DNA from: Candidatus Cloacimonadota bacterium
GTDB taxonomy: Bacteria > Cloacimonadota > Cloacimonadia > Cloacimonadales > TCS61
DNA length: 64,000 nt
Assembly (NCBI GenBank): GCA_021734245.1
Contig: JAIPJH010000004.1
Span: 9,645-73,644 of the forward strand
Direction: 5' to 3'
Positions 6,127-38,656 of the stretch are shown here, piece by piece; position 1 is the first letter of the stretch; every line of letters begins with the position of its first letter. The position numbers and the translations under genes were made by a program. The notes below the pieces were generated by a model. That model saw only the letters and a list, made by a program, of their open reading frames with translations, did not search any database and was not told where the DNA came from.

Positions 6127-7500
6127 ATGAAACTGATAAAAAATGCTGTAATTTCGAATGATAAGGAACTTGTTGATATTCTATATGAAGATAAAATAAT
6201 TCAAATCGGAAAAAATATTTCTCAATTCGAATTTGAAGAAATTATCGATCTGGAAGGAAAGATCCTGATTCCAGGCTGCATCGATGCTCATGTTCATTTC
6301 AACGATCCCGGCTACAACGAGCATGAAGATTTTATAACCGGCACAACTGCTGCAGCTTTTGGCGGTATCACCACGATCATCGATATGCCTTGCACTTCCA
6401 TTCCACCGGTTACGAATACTGAAAATCTTGAATCAAAACTATCTGTAATCAGGAATAAAGCCGTCATAGATTTTGCGCTCTGGGGTGGTATTCGCAGGAA
6501 TGATTTTCCAATTGAAATAGAAAAAATTCATCAATTATGGAAAGCGGGAATTGTCGGATTTAAAATTTACACAATTTCCGGAATGGACACTTTTGCAGCA
6601 CTTTCTTATGAAGATATAAAACAAATTTTTGAGAGATTCCCTGAAATGCTTTTTGCCTTCCATGCCGAGGATGCAGAAATTATCAAGAAAGCTGCCGATA
6701 AACTTTCTGAACTTGAAAAGATGAAGCCGGAAAATTATTTAAAATCACGACCTGCAGAAGCAGAAGTAAAAGCAGTTGGAAATATTTTGGAACTTGCCGA
6801 AAAAAATCATCTCCATTTCGTTCATATCAGTACCAAAAAAGCTGCTGAATCTATCTTGAAAGCAAAATCCAAATTGGATGTAAGCTGGGAAACATGTCCG
6901 CATTATCTGCAATTTACTGCTGCTGATTTTCCTCAGCTGAAAGGCAGATTAAAAACTGCTCCACCAGTTAAATGCGAAGATGATAAAAAATTTCTAAGAG
7001 CTGCCTTAAAAACAGGAAAAGTGGATTTTATTACAACAGATCACGCCGGATGTGATTGGAAAACAGAAAAAGATTTGGAAGATTTTTCCAAAGTTTATAA
7101 TGGAATTCCAGGAACACAATTAATGATTCCATATTTATTATCGGAATTTTATGTGAAGGAAAAAGTGCCACTATCCACTTTGATAAAGTTAACCTCGGAA
7201 AATGCTGCCAGAAGATACGGTTTATTTCCTCAAAAAGGAAGTTTACAAATTGGTTCTGACGCAGATTTTACGGTGATAGATCAAAATAGATCATTCTTGG
7301 TTAATGAAACAAAATTGAAATCGAAAGGAAAATATTCACCGTTTCATGGACAAACTTTTTCCTGTTCAATAGCAAAAACAATTGTCCGTGGAGAAACTGT
7401 TTTTGATCGAGAAAAAGGATTAATGGTCGATCCTGGTTTTGGAAATTGGGTAAAAAAAAAAGTAAATTATCTTATCGCGAAATCGGCAAAATTAGTTTGA
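6127..7500 (+). CDS. Cyclic amidohydrolase of the allantoinase/dihydroorotase family
   Basis: PGCIDAHVHFNDPG metal-binding motif, AAAFGGITTIIDMP, HFVHIST, ETCPHYL, TTDHAG. The 3' end overlaps convergent nrdG by 34 nt. Confidence 0.8.
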   Translation: MKLIKNAVISNDKELVDILYEDKIIQIGKNISQFEFEEIIDLEGKILIPGCIDAHVHFNDPGYNEHEDFITGTTAAAFGGITTIIDMPCTSIPPVTNTENLESKLSVIRNKAVIDFALWGGIRRNDFPIEIEKIHQLWKAGIVGFKIYTISGMDTFAALSYEDIKQIFERFPEMLFAFHAEDAEIIKKAADKLSELEKMKPENYLKSRPAEAEVKAVGNILELAEKNHLHFVHISTKKAAESILKAKSKLDVSWETCPHYLQFTAADFPQLKGRLKTAPPVKCEDDKKFLRAALKTGKVDFITTDHAGCDWKTEKDLEDFSKVYNGIPGTQLMIPYLLSEFYVKEKVPLSTLIKLTSENAARRYGLFPQKGSLQIGSDADFTVIDQNRSFLVNETKLKSKGKYSPFHGQTFSCSIAKTIVRGETVFDREKGLMVDPGFGNWVKKKVNYLIAKSAKLV

Positions 7501-8156
7501 AGTTCACGCGCCAGAAAGTTAAGATTTTCCTGTGAGAAAGAAGAAAATTTTACATAATCTTCATTCAGGGTTTTGGATGGTACAAACTTCTGAAGCAGAT
7601 ATCGTTTTGCTTTTCCCAGCATTTGCCCCATGATCAAAACATCATCTGTTGTTAGTAAATTTTGCACCAGTGTACTGCGAAATTCATAATCGATATTGGA
7701 ATTTTCAATAAGTTTAATGCTTCTTTTTATCGATTTTGAATCTACATTTGAACAAGTAACTTCCGCATATTTTGGCAGTGGTGCTTTTATATCCATCGCC
7801 AGATAATCCACTAATTTCAACCTGATGATTTTTTCTAAGATATCAGGATTTGTACCGTTGGTGTCAAGCTTAATGCTAAATCCCATAGATCGGCATTCTA
7901 ACAAGAAGTTTATCAAATCTGAATGCAAGGTCGGTTCACCGCCAGTTATACTCACAGCATCCAGTTTGCCTTTCCTATTTTCCAGGAAGTTAATAATTTC
8001 TTCTTCCGGTATTGGGTTGCAAAATTTATCAGCTTCAACAAGTTCGGGATTGTGACAATATGGACACCGGAAATTGCAGCCCTGAGTAAAAACAATTGCG
8101 CAGATTTTTCCGGGATAATCAATCAGCGAAAACTTCTGAAAACCACCGATTTTCAT
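7467..8156 (-). CDS. nrdG: Anaerobic ribonucleoside-triphosphate reductase activating protein (radical SAM)
   Basis: CNFRCPYCHNPE radical-SAM cluster motif. The start overlaps the nrdD stop (TAATG). Confidence 0.9.
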   Translation of the reverse strand: MKIGGFQKFSLIDYPGKICAIVFTQGCNFRCPYCHNPELVEADKFCNPIPEEEIINFLENRKGKLDAVSITGGEPTLHSDLINFLLECRSMGFSIKLDTNGTNPDILEKIIRLKLVDYLAMDIKAPLPKYAEVTCSNVDSKSIKRSIKLIENSNIDYEFRSTLVQNLLTTDDVLIMGQMLGKAKRYLLQKFVPSKTLNEDYVKFSSFSQENLNFLARELQTNFADFAIR

Positions 8157-25088: not shown

Positions 25089-25179
25089 AATATCTCCAAT
25101 TTTTTCCAACTTCGGAATGTACGAAGTTCTTCCGAATGTTGAATTTAGTAAATTTTAACTCATAAACATTCGAATGATC

Positions 25180-25227
25180 TCGAAAAAATTCGAAAACAAT
25201 TCGAAAAAATTCGAAAACAATTCGAAG
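25180..25227. repeat. 21-bp direct tandem repeat (TCGAAAAAATTCGAAAACAAT, 2.3 copies)
   Basis: Exact copies at 25180-25200 and 25201-25221 plus a partial third. It lies between the S8 stop and the EEP start. TTCGAA cores recur through 25108-25228. Confidence 0.8.
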
Positions 25228-28801: not shown

Positions 28802-28932
28802 CTCAAAGACGGAGCTTTGAGTTACTTTGTACCGAAAACATCTTGTTTGCGATCCTCAAAGACGAAGCTTTGAGTTACTTTGTACCGAAAACATCTTGTT
28901 TGCGATTCTCAAAGACGGAGCTTTGAGTTGCT
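28802..28932. repeat. 53-bp tandem repeat, 2.5 copies, each with a CTCAAAG-N6-CTTTGAG hairpin
   Basis: Units at 28802-28854 and 28855-28907, plus a partial unit from 28908. They differ at 2 positions. Confidence 0.85.
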
Positions 28933-28938
28933 TTTGTT

Positions 28939-32367: not shown

Positions 32368-32451
32368 TTTTTCGACCACGGATAAACGCAGATAAACACC
32401 GATAACTCTTTAATTCTGTCATTCTACCTGCCAAGCCGAAGTTCTGAATGT

Positions 32452-32544
32452 ATAGGAACGAAGTCTGCTCTTTTAAAGCGACAATGTCGCTTTGCATCAA
32501 AAAATTGATGCAGTCCAAAGTTTTGCATCAAACAAACTCCAAAA
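32452..32544. repeat. Three-hairpin island repeat, copy A (5'-degenerate; hairpins 2 and 3 intact)
   Basis: AGCGAC-aat-GTCGCT and TGCATCAA-aaaa-TTGATGCA, identical to copy D. Ends in CTCCAAAA. Confidence 0.75.
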
Positions 32545-32585
32545 AATTTATTGCCAAAAATCACTATATTTTCATATCTAAACAC

Positions 32586-33302
32586 ATGAAAATCTTAATA
32601 TCTTTTATCGGGAATCATGATCCTTTTGCAGATGATAAAGAAGAACTCGGACCAATTCTTTCTATATTAAAAAAACATAAATTCGATAAACTTTTTCTAT
32701 TATTTAATAATGAGAAATACTGGGATTCACTAAATCGAACACAGCAATTCTGTAATCAGAACTATCCACAAATGAAAGTAGAGTATCGTCTAGCAGAAAC
32801 TTTGAGTCCAATTGATTACAATTTTGTTTATCCTGCTATGTATCAGGTGATTCAGAAATTGAAAAAAGATAATCCAAAAGCGAAATTTACCATTTCGGTT
32901 ACTTCTGGTACACCGACCATGCATGCTTGCTGGCTTTTTTTAGTTCAAGGTGGAGTTATTAACGCAAAACTTATTCAAGTTTCTCGTGAGGCTGGAATTC
33001 AGGAGATAACATTTAAACTAGATGATTTCCCAAAAATAGAAGAAACTCCCGAGATCAAAGCAAAACTTACTCAACTTGCTAGAGAAAACGAGCAACTTAA
33101 GAATTCATTAGATCTCGAGACAGCTCTTAAAAAAGGTTTTTATATACCTGAAGAAGGTTTAGACCTAATAAATGAAATATTACCAGCATATTACAAAGGA
33201 GCTTTAAAGCTTGCTGGTGGAAATGCAGCGAAGGCAGCAAAACTTTTGGGTCTGAAACCACATACTTTCAGAAAGAGGTTAAGAAAATTAGAAATAAAGT
33301 AA
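32586..33302 (+). CDS. RtcR-type CARF domain fused directly to a Fis-type HTH (no sigma54 AAA+ module)
   Basis: MKILISFIGNHDPF... and VTSGTPTMHACWLFLVQGG..AKLIQVS closely parallel E. coli RtcR ITTGTHVAQICWFLL..ARLIQ. The C-terminal GGNAAKAAKLLGLKPHTFRKRLRKL is an HTH_8. Only 238 aa. The tracked 5' extension (32448) only translates the repeat. Confidence 0.75.
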   Translation: MKILISFIGNHDPFADDKEELGPILSILKKHKFDKLFLLFNNEKYWDSLNRTQQFCNQNYPQMKVEYRLAETLSPIDYNFVYPAMYQVIQKLKKDNPKAKFTISVTSGTPTMHACWLFLVQGGVINAKLIQVSREAGIQEITFKLDDFPKIEETPEIKAKLTQLARENEQLKNSLDLETALKKGFYIPEEGLDLINEILPAYYKGALKLAGGNAAKAAKLLGLKPHTFRKRLRKLEIK

Positions 33303-33429
33303 TTTGGAGTAAGGTAATTATTTCCTTTTAGAGTCGGAACGACTATGCTCTTTCAAGCGACTGCGACGCTTTGCATCAAACACTCTACAAGTCTTTCAGA
33401 CTTCTGAGTGATATTGATTCACTCCAAAA
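33303..33429. repeat. Three-hairpin island repeat, copy B (3' half diverged)
   Basis: TTTGGAGTAAGGTAATTATTTCCTTTTAGAGTCGGAACGACT..AGCGACTGCGACGCTTTGCATCAAA.., ending in CTCCAAAA. Begins 1 nt after the CARF-HTH stop. Confidence 0.75.
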
Positions 33430-33516
33430 GTTAAACGTAACAAAAGTTACGCATGTATTTAAAATCGATAAACCATGAAAATAGTGTTAATTTCTTTTAT
33501 GATAACACTTTAAGTT

Positions 33517-33545
33517 TTGACCATTGTTTTTCAACTGGACAGAAT
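33517..33545 (+). promoter_or_regulatory. Promoter candidate TTGACC-N17-CAGAAT for the island operon
   Basis: TTGACC at 33517-33522, 17-nt spacer, CAGAAT at 33540-33545. About 50 nt upstream of ATG 33596. Confidence 0.35.
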
Positions 33546-33595
33546 GTGATTTTTAATTATGGTAGGTTAAGTAAATTGAAATCTATGGAGGTCAT

Positions 33596-34852
33596 ATGGA
33601 CATCAGAAAATTTTTAGAGCAATTTGATGATTCGGAACTGAAAAATATTGGCGTATTAAATACAAAAAGAAATCTATTAAATTCTAAAAGTGTTGAAAGT
33701 TTAATACAATTAATGAAACAAAGTAATATAGATAAACTAGAAGGACCAGAAGATTGGTTTTTAGATATAAATTATAATTTTTGTAATCCCAAATCAAATC
33801 TAAAACAAACTGGAAATTTAAAACAAAGTCAAACAAGACTTGGAGTTGTTTTTGATTTCCAAAATAACATTTTGAATCCTCATTATAGATCTTTTGATAA
33901 AAACCAAAACAATGAAAATTCCAGTCAAAATTCTCCCCAAGAAATTTACAAACAAAAAATCATATTAGATACTACTGTTTTTGCTAATGAAGATATTTCA
34001 AAACCTGAAAATAGAATCAATTTATCACTTTTCAGTTTATTCCTAATTGATGATTTCAGATCCTGGTTTTTAGAACAGTTTGATCTTCCACAAGATTCTG
34101 TTATTTTCCCTTCGACTAATTTAAAAGGTGGAATCAGACCTGATTTTGCAGTAAATAACAAAGAAGATAAACCAATAGCTTATATAGAAGTTGAGATCGG
34201 AAGAGAAGATATTGGTCAATTACAAAATTTTAGAAGTATGCTAAATGTCCCGGTCTTTTCAGTTTGTGGAAAAAAAGAACATGAAGGACATCTGAGTCTT
34301 TTAGAAATTTATGATAAATTAAACGAAGTAAAAGAAAAAATTAAATCCAAACAATTCAATAAGAATTTTGCTGTTTATGAAACCTTGATTTATGAAAACG
34401 TTCTTTCATATGGACGTGAGAGATATAAATCAACTACAATATCAGATGAAATGAGAAATTCTTTTCTTATTCAAAATCTGATGGATCATTTGGAGATTCA
34501 CGAAGATGTGGGAAGAACTATGAGACCTGGTGAATTTCTGCTTGAAACAAAGAAAGAATTCGGATTCTCTCTTAGAATTTATTCACGAGAATCAAAAATT
34601 AGGAATAGCTTATCCATTATGGCACGATCCGGTGGTAGACCAAGAATCATATTCCCTTCTAAAGAAAAATTAGAGAAATATTTACCTTCGTATAAACAGC
34701 CTGCAATTAACGAATTATGTAATTTTCTAAAAAGGTTTGGTTATCATATTGATACATTACCGGAAAGATCACAAGCAAGAATCGATATAAACCTCGTTGA
34801 GGGAAATATTGATAAATTTATTGCGATTTTGGAAAAATTGGGTGAAATATGA
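33596..34852 (+). CDS. Hypothetical protein with a PD-(D/E)xK-like nuclease core
   Basis: GGAGG RBS. 418 aa. The candidate core GGIRPDFAVNNKEDKPIAYIEVEIGRED has the spacing typical of restriction-endonuclease-fold proteins. The rest is unassignable. Confidence 0.55.
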   Translation: MDIRKFLEQFDDSELKNIGVLNTKRNLLNSKSVESLIQLMKQSNIDKLEGPEDWFLDINYNFCNPKSNLKQTGNLKQSQTRLGVVFDFQNNILNPHYRSFDKNQNNENSSQNSPQEIYKQKIILDTTVFANEDISKPENRINLSLFSLFLIDDFRSWFLEQFDLPQDSVIFPSTNLKGGIRPDFAVNNKEDKPIAYIEVEIGREDIGQLQNFRSMLNVPVFSVCGKKEHEGHLSLLEIYDKLNEVKEKIKSKQFNKNFAVYETLIYENVLSYGRERYKSTTISDEMRNSFLIQNLMDHLEIHEDVGRTMRPGEFLLETKKEFGFSLRIYSRESKIRNSLSIMARSGGRPRIIFPSKEKLEKYLPSYKQPAINELCNFLKRFGYHIDTLPERSQARIDINLVEGNIDKFIAILEKLGEI

Positions 34853-34968
34853 AAATAGATAGAAACGATCCAATTAACAAAATAATATTTCCTGATAAGA
34901 AATCAACAACTGGTTGTATGACATTAATTGTTTGTATTTTATTATGTTTTGAGAGGTTGCATGGATAG
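34849..34968 (+). CDS. 39-aa micro-ORF with a hydrophobic Cys-rich tail, translationally coupled on both sides
   Basis: MKIDRNDPINKIIFPDKKSTTGCMTLIVCILLCFERLHG. Its ATG overlaps the upstream TGA (ATATGA) and its TAG overlaps the downstream ATG (ATGGATAG). It is below the track length cutoff. Confidence 0.3.
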   Translation: MKIDRNDPINKIIFPDKKSTTGCMTLIVCILLCFERLHG

Positions 34969-37378
34969 AAAAAAACAAATTCTAAATGCTATAATCAACA
35001 AGAATTGCAATGAGTTAGTATTTCAAGAAAGTTATGAAGACATTTTAGTAGAAATAACTGATGATTTACTTAAAAATAATGATTTTGTTCCTTGCAGTGT
35101 ATTAAACAGAAGTTTATTTTTATATACATCAGGTTCTGATTTTATACCTTTGGACGAAGAACAAGCCAAAAGAAACAGAATCATTAAACCAATCAAAACA
35201 AAGGTTGAAGCAAGGATTTCAGAAAAATTAATATCCCTTATCAAAACAAATGAAGTTGATTTATTCAATGATTTTTTTCGGGTATTATACAAAAATGAGG
35301 AAGACTATAAAGATTTATTATTCACCTATGACGATAATATTTTTATAGAACTAATTTCTTACATCATTTCAAATGATGATCTTGAATTATTGTTTGATAT
35401 TTTTAAATATTTAAACGACAATTTTAATGTTGATTATAATGAACCAATTGAAAAGATATTCATATACTTCATGGAAAACCGTGATAATAGATTCTATCCT
35501 CAGTTTAAAAAAGAATTAGTGATTTGGTTCAATGAATTTGTTTTTGACGGAACCCCATTAGACATATTCTATGAGCGAAATTTCTTGGATCTTATTGTTA
35601 AATATGATGTTGAGTTAACTGCTGATATTTTAGAGCAATCTCTTCATATTACTAATGATCAAACTGAGGATATGAATATAATTGATATGTTATTAGAATA
35701 TTCGAATTTTTTTGACACTTCAATTGAAAATACCAAAAGAAAAAATATATATGAAGCTCTTAATAAATTTGCTTCCAAATATCCGAGTAGCGAATCAATG
35801 TCTTTATTATTATTTTTTTCAATTATTCAAAATGTAAATGAACCAATTAAAATCTTTAAAAAAATAAAAACTAAAAATCTTAAAAATGAAGTAATCAATT
35901 TAATTTGTAAGAAATATCTGAATCCCAGATTAATTAGATTAGATTTAAAGAATAGAAAAAAAATTGTGGATTTTCTATTAGATCAAAATTTAGATTTCGA
36001 TTTTGAACTAAAAATACTAGAAGCATTTATATCTAACCAAACCACGTTAACTTTACAAAAGGATATATTCAATTTATCAGATTATATTAGAAAATTATAT
36101 CATGCTATGATAGAAGGAATAAACAGAAACAGTGTTGAAAAATCTATAAAAAATGACCTAAAATCGCTTTTGCTTATTATAATTAGATTGTACGATAATA
36201 ATTTTGATATTGAAAATCATAAATTATTTACAAAAATATGTAATTATTTATTTAATTTTACCCCACAAAGATACTATTCTATGTATAATTATTTTGATTC
36301 TATCGATTTATCATATAGTGAATTTGCAAAAACGGGTATAACATCTGGTCCTAGTTTTCATGATCTCAAGTATGAAAAATATGATACATCAATAAAAAAA
36401 GATTATTTTACTTTTAAAATATTTCATAAAATATTCTTCAAATTGAATAAAATATCAGATAACAATAACGAACTTAAAAAATATGTTGATTTGATACATA
36501 AATTGTATAGTTCATTATTTGTCTATACTAGAAATGTGATTTTTATTAATTCAGCTGTCGAAAAAAAAGATGAAATTACTAAAGCACGGGTTGAAGAACG
36601 CAATCGTATTTTGGCAAATCTATCTCATACGGTCAAAAACATGATCGGTACGATTATAGATCCTTTGGAAAATATGAAAAGCCAAAATAAACTTCAACCA
36701 GTTGCAATAGATAATGCAATAAGAGGAGCCAATCTGGTTCGCGGTTTAGTAAATGCAATGAACCTTAGTTTCAAAGGTTCAATAGAAGACTTCCAATACG
36801 ACATAAAAAATGCAGAATACAATAATTCTACTTCTCTAAAACAAATGTTTATAGAGTCCCTTAAATATTCCATTAGCTCGATGTTCGACGGTAAATATTT
36901 TGAAAAATTTATGAGAAATTATTTTCCCAACAAAGCTGAATTTCTGGTAGCAAAAACCAAATGGAACGATGTTTCTCAAACAACAGAAATTCAAAAAATA
37001 ATGGATTTTATGAACACATATATGCTGAAAGCAGAAATTGATCTGGATTCGGCACAGGATTTTGTAATAGGTAATGATAAGGGATCTTCTCTTAAATTCC
37101 TAATTATGATCCAGGAAATGGTTTTCAATGCTGTTAAATATTCTTCCTTCGTTCCCCAGGATGAACGTTTTATCAAAATTGAGTTTTCGGCTGATAATGA
37201 ATATGTTTCCATTCAAGTAAGCAATAAATTCCAACCTAAAACTAAAGTGAAATCTAGTGGTCTTGGACATGAGATAATTAACAATTTTTCTAAATTGCTG
37301 CAAACAAAACCTGATATTAGAACTGAAAATGAAATATATTCGGTAGAAGTGAAGTTCCAAAATTTGTGGGAGGTATAA
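34961..37378 (+). CDS. Atypical histidine-kinase-like protein: ~560-aa uncharacterised helical N-terminal region plus DHp-like and HATPase_c-like C-terminus
   Basis: ATG 34961 with a GAGAGG RBS. H-box-like RILANLSHTVKNMIG, N-box-like QEMVFNAVKYSS, G-box-like SSGLGHEIINNF. No TM segment or signal peptide. Codon usage is very AT-rich. Confidence 0.7.
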   Translation: MDRKKQILNAIINKNCNELVFQESYEDILVEITDDLLKNNDFVPCSVLNRSLFLYTSGSDFIPLDEEQAKRNRIIKPIKTKVEARISEKLISLIKTNEVDLFNDFFRVLYKNEEDYKDLLFTYDDNIFIELISYIISNDDLELLFDIFKYLNDNFNVDYNEPIEKIFIYFMENRDNRFYPQFKKELVIWFNEFVFDGTPLDIFYERNFLDLIVKYDVELTADILEQSLHITNDQTEDMNIIDMLLEYSNFFDTSIENTKRKNIYEALNKFASKYPSSESMSLLLFFSIIQNVNEPIKIFKKIKTKNLKNEVINLICKKYLNPRLIRLDLKNRKKIVDFLLDQNLDFDFELKILEAFISNQTTLTLQKDIFNLSDYIRKLYHAMIEGINRNSVEKSIKNDLKSLLLIIIRLYDNNFDIENHKLFTKICNYLFNFTPQRYYSMYNYFDSIDLSYSEFAKTGITSGPSFHDLKYEKYDTSIKKDYFTFKIFHKIFFKLNKISDNNNELKKYVDLIHKLYSSLFVYTRNVIFINSAVEKKDEITKARVEERNRILANLSHTVKNMIGTIIDPLENMKSQNKLQPVAIDNAIRGANLVRGLVNAMNLSFKGSIEDFQYDIKNAEYNNSTSLKQMFIESLKYSISSMFDGKYFEKFMRNYFPNKAEFLVAKTKWNDVSQTTEIQKIMDFMNTYMLKAEIDLDSAQDFVIGNDKGSSLKFLIMIQEMVFNAVKYSSFVPQDERFIKIEFSADNEYVSIQVSNKFQPKTKVKSSGLGHEIINNFSKLLQTKPDIRTENEIYSVEVKFQNLWEV

Positions 37379-37379
37379 G

Positions 37380-38426
37380 TTGAAAATACTTTATGTGGAA
37401 GATGAACTGACAAAGAATGTTCCCAAAATTATCAGGTTATTCGAGAAATATCTTGGACCTAAAAGAGTAAAGCAGTTAGAAAAACTAGAAAATGATGAGA
37501 GTGGTTACGGTGCTGAACCTCAGGAAATTAAGAGAATAGTTGAATCGTGTGGAGTTGTAGATATTGAATATTGCTTTACTGATAGTTTAAAGAAAATAGT
37601 AGAATTCCAAAATGAATATACAATTTTCATAATTGATAGAAACTTATCTGAAGTAGAGTATGAGTTGGAAGATATACAAAAAATCGGAACAAGCTACAAA
37701 AATGAGTTTTATGATAAATTCTTTGAACGTGAGGGAGATTATTTTCTTGAACTACTTATCTCAGCTAAATTTGATGTAATTAATAATTTTTACTTTCTTA
37801 CAGCTAATTCCCGCGATGATCTGCGAAATGCAGATAGATTAAAAGAGCATTTTGATTTTGGATTATTTAAAGCAAGTAACATCATTGATAAATCTGATAA
37901 TCTGGAAATGCATAAACTAAAGATGCGAATTGAAAATGATGAAAAACTTCAGGTTTTGAAAGATAATATTAGATATGTGCGTATATTGGAAAAAATCGAT
38001 TCTGACGTTTCGGAAAACTTCCTTGACCTTTTAACTCATAAAGATGATTCAAATCAAAATACCATAAGAAAAAATCTTACTACAATAAGAAATATCCTTT
38101 CCGATAATATTCTTCCGGAAATTGCCAGGTTGAAAAATGCTCCTGATTTTTGCTGGAATCCCAAGAATAAGAATCAGATTGTTATGAGAGGAGTTATAAG
38201 TTGGATATGTAATTTCGATAAAGATACGAGAATAAATAATTTTCAATTTAATTCTAATGCTATTATAAAGAATTTTCTATATGATATTCAGGAGATAGCA
38301 AGTGATTATGGTGATCATAAAAATTACAAAAAAAAAGAAAAAACACTTGCTACTAGTGATACCGTAAATTCACTAATATATGCTTTAAAAGATATTATCG
38401 TGTGGTATGATAAGATTCTGGAGTAA
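37380..38426 (+). CDS. Receiver (REC)-like domain protein with an uncharacterised C-terminal effector-like domain
   Basis: TTG start 1 nt after the upstream stop, with a GGGAGG RBS 6 nt upstream. KILYVEDE, TIFIIDRNL (candidate phospho-Asp) and YFLTAN. The C-terminal ~180 aa (TIRKNLTTIRNILSDN ... IQEIASDYGDH ... LIYALKDIIVWY) has no DNA-binding motif that I recognise. Confidence 0.65.
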   Translation: MKILYVEDELTKNVPKIIRLFEKYLGPKRVKQLEKLENDESGYGAEPQEIKRIVESCGVVDIEYCFTDSLKKIVEFQNEYTIFIIDRNLSEVEYELEDIQKIGTSYKNEFYDKFFEREGDYFLELLISAKFDVINNFYFLTANSRDDLRNADRLKEHFDFGLFKASNIIDKSDNLEMHKLKMRIENDEKLQVLKDNIRYVRILEKIDSDVSENFLDLLTHKDDSNQNTIRKNLTTIRNILSDNILPEIARLKNAPDFCWNPKNKNQIVMRGVISWICNFDKDTRINNFQFNSNAIIKNFLYDIQEIASDYGDHKNYKKKEKTLATSDTVNSLIYALKDIIVWYDKILE

Positions 38427-38513
38427 AAGAATTATTTCCTTTTAGAGTCGGAACGACTCTGTTCTTTTCAAGCGACTGCGTCGCTTTGCATCAAAGGATT
38501 GATGCAGTCCAAG
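38420..38513. repeat. Three-hairpin island repeat, copy C
   Basis: GGAGTAA (supplies the stop of the REC gene), then AGAGTCG-gaa-CGACTCT (38444-38460), AGCGAC-tgc-GTCGCT (38471-38485) and TGCATCAA-agga-TTGATGCA (38487-38506). Confidence 0.85.
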
Positions 38514-38545
38514 GGTGTTTTGGAGTACAGCGATCATTCGCTATT

Positions 38546-38656
38546 TTTTGGAGTAAAGGAATTATTTCCTTTTAGAGTCGGAACGACTCTGCTTTTTGGA
38601 AGCGACAATGTCGCTTTGCATCAAAAAATTGATGCAGTCCAAAATTCTCTCCAAAA
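38546..38656. repeat. Three-hairpin island repeat, copy D (most complete; TTTTGGAG...CTCCAAAA termini)
   Basis: Hairpins at 38574-38590, 38601-38615 and 38617-38636. Terminal 8-bp inverted repeat TTTTGGAG (38546-38553) / CTCCAAAA (38649-38656). It abuts the stop of the convergent permease gene. Confidence 0.85.

Follow-up and report, generated by a model that had tools for sequence, protein, structure and literature searches.

Csa3 has been described as the sole experimentally characterised CARF transcription factor (PMC9704534). RtcR-like CARF regulators, in which a CARF domain, an AAA+ ATPase domain and a helix-turn-helix (HTH) domain are joined, are assumed to be sigma-54-dependent. Such CARF-ATPase-HTH proteins adjoin restriction-modification (R-M) systems (PMC4012209) and head CoCoNuT superoperons (PMC11090510). 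In this study, a stretch of 64,000 nucleotides (64 kb; hereafter the window) from contig JAIPJH010000004.1 of a Candidatus Cloacimonadota bacterium was analysed. It was found that the window encodes a regulator of only 238 amino acid residues (aa), in which a CARF domain and a Fis-type HTH domain are retained and the AAA+ domain has been excised. The regulator gene heads an operon of three genes, which it probably controls. The gene rests on its open reading frame (ORF), profile matches from Pfam, NCBIfam and PADLOC, an AlphaFold2 (AF2) model, Foldseek matches, homologs, and the ratio of nonsynonymous to synonymous substitution rates (dN/dS). Its parts are as follows.

32586-33302, plus strand: gene of the CARF-linker-HTH_8 regulator, 238 aa
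32586-33008, plus strand: CARF domain, aa 1-141
33048-33134, plus strand: linker helix, aa 155-183
33165-33290, plus strand: Fis-type HTH domain, aa 194-235

The regulator (ORF 32586-33302, plus strand; N-terminus MKILISFIGNHDPF) is found, as the exact protein, under the name "hypothetical protein" in a metagenome-assembled genome of Candidatus Cloacimonetes. An earlier note, made from the sequence alone, had called it a minimal RtcR with a CARF domain and a C-terminal HTH_8 domain. Both domains were confirmed. Pfam PF06956 (RtcR) matches residues 15-135 (3.6e-10; 40 bits against a cutoff of 23.1), PF22208 (Cas_Csm6_CARF) also matches (1.4e-06; 28.4 bits against 27.5), and the CARF assignment is borne out by PADLOC models and by the predicted fold as well. 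PF02954 (HTH_8) matches residues 206-235 (2.7e-06; 27.4 bits against 22). As a description of the architecture, "minimal RtcR" is apt; as an identity it is not, since the NCBIfam RtcR model NF038308 gives 23.3 bits (2.5e-05), far below its cutoff of 650, and the nearest relatives are not Rtc proteins. The NCBIfam Csm6 model TIGR02672 scores 2.2e-16. Twenty PADLOC CARF models match the regulator, and the top one is RtcR_PspF2--CARF_AAA_HTH (1.3e-31), which matches in two stretches and skips the ATPase part.

The AF2 model, built from a 36-sequence alignment, has an overall predicted local distance difference test score (pLDDT) of 82.8. Residues 1-141 form a Rossmann-like CARF domain and residues 194-234 a three-helix HTH domain (pLDDT about 90 for each), with a long helix at residues 155-183. 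In a Foldseek search against the PDB, the first match is Csm6 bound to cyclic hexaadenylate, cA6 (6tug, 8.6e-09; 8pe3), followed by Thermus thermophilus Csm6, Cdn1, Csx1-Crn2, Cam1, Can2, Card1, Cad1, ring nucleases and Csa3. Thus, the best structural matches are CARF proteins bound to cA6 or to cyclic tetraadenylate (cA4), while the match to Csa3 is weak (2wte, 6.3e-04). The loop T106-S-G-T-P-x-M-H-x-C-W116, which is invariant in the regulator alignment, follows strand 4 and lines the CARF ligand pocket.

The earlier note had seen no sigma-54 AAA+ domain, and none was found: PF00158 has no match in the regulator. When five full-length relatives were used as tblastn queries, their matches in the window were confined to two abutting parts of the ORF, CARF (32580-33119) and HTH (33111-33287), and residues ~185-427 of the relatives matched nowhere in the 64 kb. 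The junctions were located in alignment A4. The long-form protein P0074 reads ...KKKLDLE, then FNELIGQ and the rest of an AAA+ domain of about 255 aa, then ...PDNS and IVLPDEGIDLMNEIVPQYY; the window protein reads ...KNSLDLE, TALKKG and FYIPEEGLDLINEILPAYY, and its FYIPEEG aligns with IVLPDEG of P0074 at the second junction. The short and long forms therefore differ by a clean excision of the AAA+ domain, with both junctions conserved.

Is the regulator gene a decaying remnant of an rtcR-like gene, or an assembly artefact? Some homologs are annotated by NCBI as "RtcR family protein, partial", and the L039 ortholog is split by a frameshift. However, homologs of the regulator's length (236-254 aa) form about 60 clusters at 90% identity, come from many samples and assemblers, and are 61-85% identical over the full length; linker and HTH are also conserved across the alignment. 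The median pairwise dN/dS is 0.085 for the CARF part, 0.20 for the linker and 0.11 for the junction and HTH. A truncated rtcR with AAA+ fragments beside it, which the earlier note had set against its own reading, was not seen in the 64 kb by tblastn. With some 60 clusters of the same length, a dN/dS of about 0.1 across the junction and HTH, two conserved junctions, no AAA+ trace in the flanks and at least three other independent short lineages, the regulator gene is not a pseudogene or remnant, and this explanation is effectively refuted. The labels given to homologs in databases are "hypothetical", "RtcR family protein, partial" and "sigma54-dependent regulator"; the latter two are misleading for the short-form proteins. 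In L039, the split regulator consists of two overlapping ORFs (7001-7357 and 7348-7722) followed by an intact pair of kinase and receiver genes, which points to a sequencing error or to a pseudogene made by a frameshift.

To trace the origin of the short form, 1.84 billion representative sequences were scanned, and 618 relatives of the regulator were found. Most of them are about 500 aa long and match in two stretches, the CARF and the HTH parts; they are therefore CARF-AAA+-HTH proteins. The closest relatives are activators of this type of about 490 aa from related uncultured bacteria. The genomic loci compared below were obtained by an alignment-based rescan (a single-protein query gave none in genome contigs and one in metagenome contigs). 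In a neighbour-joining tree of the CARF domain, which is a distance tree and carries no support values, the window-type short forms are monophyletic and their sister is a long-form clade. Three further short groups (P0061; P0082/91/94; P0077/98/120/141) nest separately among the long forms, which suggests that the AAA+ domain has been lost repeatedly and independently.

The earlier note had also pointed out that the regulator gene has no visible Shine-Dalgarno sequence. This is real in the window, but it is confined to a subclade made up of the window, L005, L008 and L071; most orthologs have AGGAG-like sites. In the four loci of the subclade, TTATTGCCAA lies about 30 nucleotides 5′ of the regulator ATG (within 32540-32585 in the window). 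This placement suggests that the leader of the regulator mRNA is very short or absent, and no convincing -10 element that would support a leaderless mRNA was seen at these four loci.

What does the regulator act on? A perfect palindrome and a promoter lie between its gene and the next one.

33436-33451, no strand: candidate operator, perfect palindrome CGTAAC-AAAA-GTTACG (CGTAACAAAAGTTACG), called from conservation in the short-form loci
33536-33563, plus strand: sigma-70-type promoter of the downstream operon, called by consensus match; -35 element TGGACA at 33536-33541, 16-nt spacer, -10 element TATGGT at 33558-33563
33587-33591, plus strand: Shine-Dalgarno sequence GGAGG, followed by ATG at 33596, the start of the first downstream gene

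The palindrome, (A)AAGTAAC-N4-GTTAC, is present at or just past the regulator stop codon in all of the ten short-form loci, with one imperfect arm in L005 and, in L008, a position past a transposase insertion. Its arms are constant across these loci, while the 4-nt spacer varies freely and the flanking DNA has diverged. The 64-kb window holds a single exact copy of the pattern, and among the 78 fetched loci it is nearly restricted to the position after the regulator in short-form loci. A T[GA]GACA-N16/17-TAnnnT promoter follows in nine of the ten short-form loci and in L073, and in none of 14 long-form loci. In eight loci, 89.5-91.5 bp separate the centre of the palindrome from the -35 element; in L012, the figure is 78.5 bp. 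On the other hand, a strict sigma-54 motif, TGG[CA]A[CT]-N5-NTGC[AT], was found in seven of the 14 long-form loci, with looser versions in others, while none of the ten short-form loci has a -24/-12 motif (TGGCAC-N5-TTGC). The long-form loci also have palindromes at the regulator stop codon, with other arms (GTAAA...TTTAC, GTAAT...ATTAC). Since the sigma-70-like promoter is found only in short-form loci (and L073) and the sigma-54 motif only in long-form loci, the loss of the AAA+ domain was accompanied by replacement of a sigma-54 promoter with a sigma-70-type one, and the geometry of the upstream site was kept. The proposal of the earlier note that this is a classical, AAA+-independent regulator of the adjacent operon is supported by the palindrome in ten of ten loci, by its spacing of about 91 bp and by this contrast of promoters. 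I also considered whether TGGACA could be a degenerate -24 element of sigma-54. This was ruled out: GC at -12 is present in no locus, two loci have TAGACA, and TAnnnT follows 16-17 nt further on in every case.

The earlier note had proposed two regions for binding by the regulator, 32368-32585 and 33303-33595. The second holds the candidate operator and is the probable regulated DNA; the 14-mer repeats, which are found in the first as well, belong to a repetitive extragenic palindromic (REP)-like element. This element is about 90 bp long and has three hairpins: AGAGTCG-GAA-CGACTCT, AAGCGAC-AAT-GTCGCTT and TGCATCAA-AAAA-TTGATGCA. It occurs four times in the window, always around the regulator module.

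~32465-32521, plus strand: partial REP-like copy with only hairpins 2 and 3, 5′ of the regulator gene
~33310-33385, plus strand: REP-like copy (hairpins 1 and 2), between the regulator stop codon and the operator
~38425-38515 and ~38555-38645, plus strand: two complete REP-like copies in tandem, past the last gene of the downstream operon

An IS200-like Y1 transposase of the REP-associated tyrosine transposase (RAYT) type (PF01797, 1.2e-07) lies between copies of the same repeats in L008, L010, L039 and L071, and its insertion site is exactly between the regulator stop codon and the operator (REP and transposase stretches: L008 7711-8680, L010 5104-6000, L039 7722-8580, L071 7846-8460). Some REP hairpins (GTAAC-CGT-GTTAC in L039 and L071) resemble the operator arms, and this likeness might explain the recurrent insertion site. 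A 14-mer, CGCTTTGCATCAAA, and the palindrome TGCATCAA-N4-TTGATGCA, both of which flank the module, had been candidate operators. They were rejected as parts of the REP-like element, because they are missing from orthologous loci free of REP sequences and because a Y1 transposase is flanked by the same repeats. The REP-like repeats are not part of the regulatory mechanism.

Could the palindrome at 33436-33451 itself be a REP relic or a hairpin that terminates the regulator transcript, with the real target of the regulator elsewhere? A terminator scan calls it terminator-like, REP hairpins with similar arms exist as described, and REP/RAYT insertions recur at exactly the operator spot. Yet the arm sequence is invariant with zero compensatory changes while the loop is freely variable, and the AT-rich stem has just 5-6 bp and is not consistently followed by a T-run. 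Besides, the palindrome is also present in the REP-free loci L001, L005, L012, L069, L070 and L073, its distance to the promoter is fixed, and long-form loci have analogous GTAAA...TTTAC palindromes at the same place. Thus, a terminator or a REP relic is very improbable, and the palindrome remains the candidate operator.

The operon downstream of the palindrome and the promoter consists of three genes.

33596-34852, plus strand: first gene, 418 aa, an optional "slot" gene with homologs in L010, L012/L067 and L073
34928-37378, plus strand: divergent histidine kinase, 816 aa from TTG 34928, with C-terminal homology in more than 20 loci
37380-38426, plus strand: receiver (REC)-domain protein, 348 aa, supported by alignment A3 and an AF2 model

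The conserved part of the kinase is the C-terminal region of about 270-330 aa, which carries an H-box (NLSHTVKN), an N-box (NAVKY) and a G-box (SSGLG). H76, N243 and G287/G289 are invariant in alignment A5. A scan of 11 members of the family found HATPase_c_5 in nine (best 4.6e-07), HATPase_c in seven and HisKA in four. The C-terminal core is 42-72% identical between orthologous loci. The N-terminal region of about 500 aa (34928-36400 in the window) is unrelated across L001, L005, L069 and L074, with tetratricopeptide repeats in some of them. Such hypervariability of the N-terminus is what one expects of a sensor domain that diversifies fast. Translation of the kinase probably begins at ATG 34961 rather than TTG 34928. 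A profile of the kinase had no significant match in the PDB.

The REC proteins are about 335-350 aa long and begin with MKILYVEDEL. E7, D8, D86, T141 and K171 are conserved in alignment A3 as expected of a REC domain, and a helical C-terminal domain with a conserved SDFGxH motif follows. With the H-, N- and G-boxes of the one protein and the acidic pocket, Asp, Thr and Lys of the other, the genes at 34928-38426 form a two-component system, although the window kinase and REC proteins themselves score below the Pfam cutoffs. Homologs of the 348-aa protein fall into 229 clusters, none of which has a Pfam domain. Its AF2 model is confident (pLDDT 90.3, predicted TM-score 0.85), and neither Foldseek nor a profile search found a significant match in the PDB; the weak Foldseek matches are mainly REC domains and one HEPN protein. 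A HEPN identity for the C-terminal domain was considered and dropped, the match being single and weak (2hsb) and the Rx4-6H motif being absent.

The 418-aa protein has no match in Pfam, NCBIfam, PADLOC or the PDB. Two blocks are invariant in its family, NEDxSKPENRINL and GGIRPDFA-x9-P[IL]AYIEVE[IL]G. Judging from its residues, the latter block (GGIRPDFA...AYIEVEIG, with D183...E198-x-E200) is a possible PD-(D/E)xK-like nuclease core. In PADLOC-DB 2.0.0, a release whose coverage of the Detocs models is unconfirmed, the 418-, 816- and 348-aa proteins and their homologs had no match.

Is the same cargo common to the short and long forms? The kinase and REC pair lies downstream of the short form in the window, L001, L005, L007, L012/L067, L039, L069 and L074, and downstream of the long form in L014, L016, L029, L030, L032, L034, L036, L045-47, L054-56, L058 and L075. 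The slot between regulator and kinase is occupied by the 418-aa protein in the window, L010, L012 and L073, by a RadC-like JAB protein in L005, and by an HNH endonuclease of about 70 aa (PF13392, 5.5e-13; also matching the PADLOC ZorE HNH models) in several long-form loci. A second kinase-like/REC-like pair is common to the short-form locus L002 and the long-form loci L015, L024 and L038. Other cargo includes a Type I R-M system downstream of the long form in L027, and an ExoX-like_C protein, a ClpP-like protein and a 1,900-aa N6_Mtase/HATPase protein behind the short-form regulator P0020. A five-gene set behind the short-form regulator of L073 (2925-9603), beside McrBC genes, includes two kinases of the window type and a homolog of the 418-aa protein. 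In L071/L072 (7001-8500), the regulator is present without operator, promoter and cargo, and REP/RAYT sequence is found instead. This is the same chromosomal site as L005 8001-12700, with an SNF2 helicase and Impact_N upstream and radical-SAM, amidohydrolase and ETF genes downstream; thus, the cargo shows presence/absence polymorphism. In summary, the pattern is that of a regulator which heads, at its 5′ end, an operon that is variable, island-like and of a defence type. It agrees with the published picture of RtcR-like CARF-ATPase-HTH proteins beside R-M systems (PMC4012209) and CoCoNuT superoperons (PMC11090510).

Some further observations were made at these loci. Where the HNH gene is present in long-form loci, it directly follows the sigma-54 promoter, ahead of the kinase/REC pair (L032 8623-8838, L046 8513-8827, L055 8639-8851, L056 8639-8851 and L058 5315-5536). 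In L075/L076 (3282-3744), a ParE/RHH toxin-antitoxin pair lies on the opposite strand between the long-form CARF regulator and the kinase/REC genes. L078 (2930-8884), from Desulfococcaceae, has a kinase-like/REC pair with no CARF regulator within 6 kb; an AAA_15/AAA_21 ATPase gene of the OLD/Gabija-like class follows, which makes it a defence-type neighbourhood.

In L070, a complete type III-A csm operon comes directly after the short-form regulator P0050, which is 64% identical to the window regulator; the Cas10 of this operon keeps GGDD and HD, and Card1 follows the csm genes. L070 is the only one of about 14 distinct short-form loci to adjoin a type III-A operon. This neighbour bears on another explanation, that the protein is mainly a ring nuclease or a sponge for cyclic oligoadenylate (cOA), like the CARF-HTH protein Sis0811, with the HTH as an accessory and the adjacent operon not regulated. 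CARF-HTH ring nucleases are known (PMC9638899), the Sis0811 structure is among the fold matches (7pq3, E 2.4e-04), and the CARF domains of Csm6, the best fold matches, possess ring-nuclease activity (PMC9704534). This explanation, however, accounts neither for the conservation of palindrome and promoter together with the gene nor for an ancestry among DNA-binding enhancer-binding proteins that head the same cargo. A nearby type III system is absent at most loci, and purifying selection on the HTH is as strong as on the CARF domain. A main role as a ring nuclease or sponge is thus improbable.

With moderate confidence, the protein is read as a sigma-70-dependent regulator that is gated by a ligand and controls a variable defence-like operon. 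The architecture, conservation and origin, the palindrome and promoter, and the switch from sigma-54 to sigma-70 were shown by the analysis. The regulator would be a functional dimer, derived from a CARF-AAA+-HTH bacterial enhancer-binding protein (bEBP) of the RtcR_PspF2 group by clean loss of an ATPase module of about 255 aa; what was left would be the CARF sensor, a helical and probably coiled-coil linker, and the Fis-type HTH. The HTH dimer may bind GTAAC-N4-GTTAC (33436-33451), 3′ of its own gene. The sigma-70-type promoter at 33536-33563 would be controlled from this site, which lies some 125 bp 5′ of the transcription start, and the target of the regulator would be the operon 33596-38426 with the 418-aa protein, the divergent histidine kinase and the REC protein with a helical output domain. 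By analogy with Csa3, a nucleotide-derived ligand in the symmetric pocket of the CARF dimer could alter DNA binding or the geometry of the HTH; Csa3 is a precedent for a CARF regulator modulated by its ligand (PMC9704534, PMC8844856, PMC8699464). The putative ligand is either cOA or RNA, in the latter case an end or fragment that bears a 2′,3′-cyclic phosphate. The Csm6-like fold and the synteny of L070 favour cOA, while the relationship to the RtcR family and the lack of a nearby cyclase at most loci favour RNA ends or fragments with a cyclic phosphate. Binding to the palindrome, gating by a ligand, the sign of regulation and a defence role of the cargo are interpretation.

As for the sign, ligand-dependent activation of a weak promoter is most likely; both the strict constancy of the spacing and the weak -10 element speak for it. 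A serious rival is that the same protein acts negatively from the same operator: as a roadblock to read-through, or by forming a DNA loop, it would silence the cargo until the ligand releases it. The operator overlaps or abuts the regulator stop codon at most loci, which is an ideal position for a roadblock; toxic defence cargo is commonly held repressed; and the unliganded CARF domain is inhibitory in the bEBP ancestors (PMC7790460). But a roadblock does not need a strictly fixed spacing of about 91 bp to the -35 element, a poor -10 element (TAnnnT only) suggests a promoter in need of activation, and RNA polymerase cannot be occluded from a site near -125. I regard repression as unlikely, and activation is preferred.

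Several points weigh against ligand-gated control of a sigma-70 promoter. The centre of the operator, a candidate site from sequence, is near -125, unusually distant for a sigma-70 activator or repressor. The promoter calls are consensus matches, and promoter rules for the host phylum are not established. The linker is modelled with low confidence (pLDDT 54-71). A cOA synthase is near only one of the roughly 14 distinct short-form loci, so the ligand may not be cOA. The mechanism of RtcR, a ligand-triggered oligomerisation of the AAA+ domain (PMC7790460), cannot apply without that domain. Finally, the regulator occurs without the cargo in L071/L072 and the cargo without the regulator in L078, so their coupling is not obligatory.

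A wider reading is possible, and I offer it tentatively: a bEBP was naturally converted, in several independent conversions, into a sigma-70 regulator that senses cOA or 2′,3′-cyclic-phosphate RNA and switches on an undescribed two-component anti-phage module. In such a case, the position of the operator would have been kept during the conversions, and the module would consist of the sensor kinase with the hypervariable N-terminus and a receiver-effector protein.

As for the rest of the window, the genes that neighbour the module encode TauE, LptD, a HAD phosphatase, two Exo_endo_phos proteins, a subtilase, MacB/FtsX, a CsgG-like protein and glycine-cleavage P. As the earlier note had stated for rtcA and rtcB, neither gene is found within about 10 kb of the regulator, nor are cas genes. 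No CRISPR array or known RNA was found in the window by Rfam and tandem-repeat scans. The HAD-phosphatase and LptD genes are separated by DNA with a 53-bp tandem repeat (28802-28934; 2.5 copies at 95% identity), and an 11/21-bp tandem repeat (25164-25226) lies upstream of the subtilase gene.

The short-form family would be a third solution, a CARF-HTH regulator derived from a bEBP, which must pass its ligand signal straight to DNA binding or to the sigma-70 polymerase. Cargo and operator placement are common to the long and short forms while the promoter type differs, so the two are a matched pair in which the contribution of the AAA+ domain and the rewiring of a regulon from sigma-54 to sigma-70 may be studied. 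A small protein, a 16-bp operator and a defined promoter, with all sites being predicted, make a tractable candidate for a ligand-responsive genetic switch. The family also offers a route to the still-debated ligands of RtcR-like CARF domains, and it points to an uncharacterised kinase/receiver module with more than 200 homolog clusters that lack an annotated domain.

How does the regulator compare with described systems? No description of a CARF-HTH_8 protein without an ATPase was found in the literature searched, which did not cover the 2020 CARF census (Makarova 2020). Fis and the AAA+-independent derivatives of the NtrC family, such as TyrR and Rhodobacter NtrC, use an NtrC-type HTH_8 domain with sigma-70 RNA polymerase, some of them from far-upstream sites. 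In these proteins, either a degenerate AAA+ domain is kept or the sensor domain is absent, and none is known to have a CARF domain.

Csa3 is a likely functional analogue. It responds to cA4 at type I-A/III CRISPR loci and, like the regulator, has a CARF domain fused straight to a DNA-binding domain with no enzyme domain. Unlike the winged HTH of Csa3, the regulator has a bEBP-derived three-helix HTH_8 domain and a long helical linker, indicating an independent origin; it is also bacterial (Cloacimonadota and relatives) and mostly not linked to CRISPR.

RtcR of Escherichia coli and Salmonella, which activates rtcBA with sigma-54, shares with the regulator the N-terminal RtcR-family CARF domain and the C-terminal Fis-type HTH_8 domain. 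In both cases, the gene lies immediately upstream of the presumed target operon in the same orientation, and the target has a palindromic site upstream. In contrast to RtcR, the regulator has no AAA+ domain, so it can neither remodel the sigma-54 holoenzyme nor signal by ATPase oligomerisation; its target promoter is of the sigma-70 type, and rtcA and rtcB are not its neighbours. Its CARF domain is nearer to Csm6 than to RtcR, both by fold and by TIGR02672.

The CARF-AAA+-HTH regulators of the RtcR_PspF2 type are the direct evolutionary parents, with 49-58% identity in the CARF domain. Like the regulator, they have the kinase and REC cargo, are encoded at the 5′ end of defence-like operons of variable content, and have a palindrome placed at the stop codon. 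The regulator differs from them in that the AAA+ domain is excised, the palindrome arms are GTAAC/GTTAC instead of GTAAA/TTTAC or GTAAT/ATTAC, and the target promoter is of the sigma-70 type instead of the sigma-54 type.

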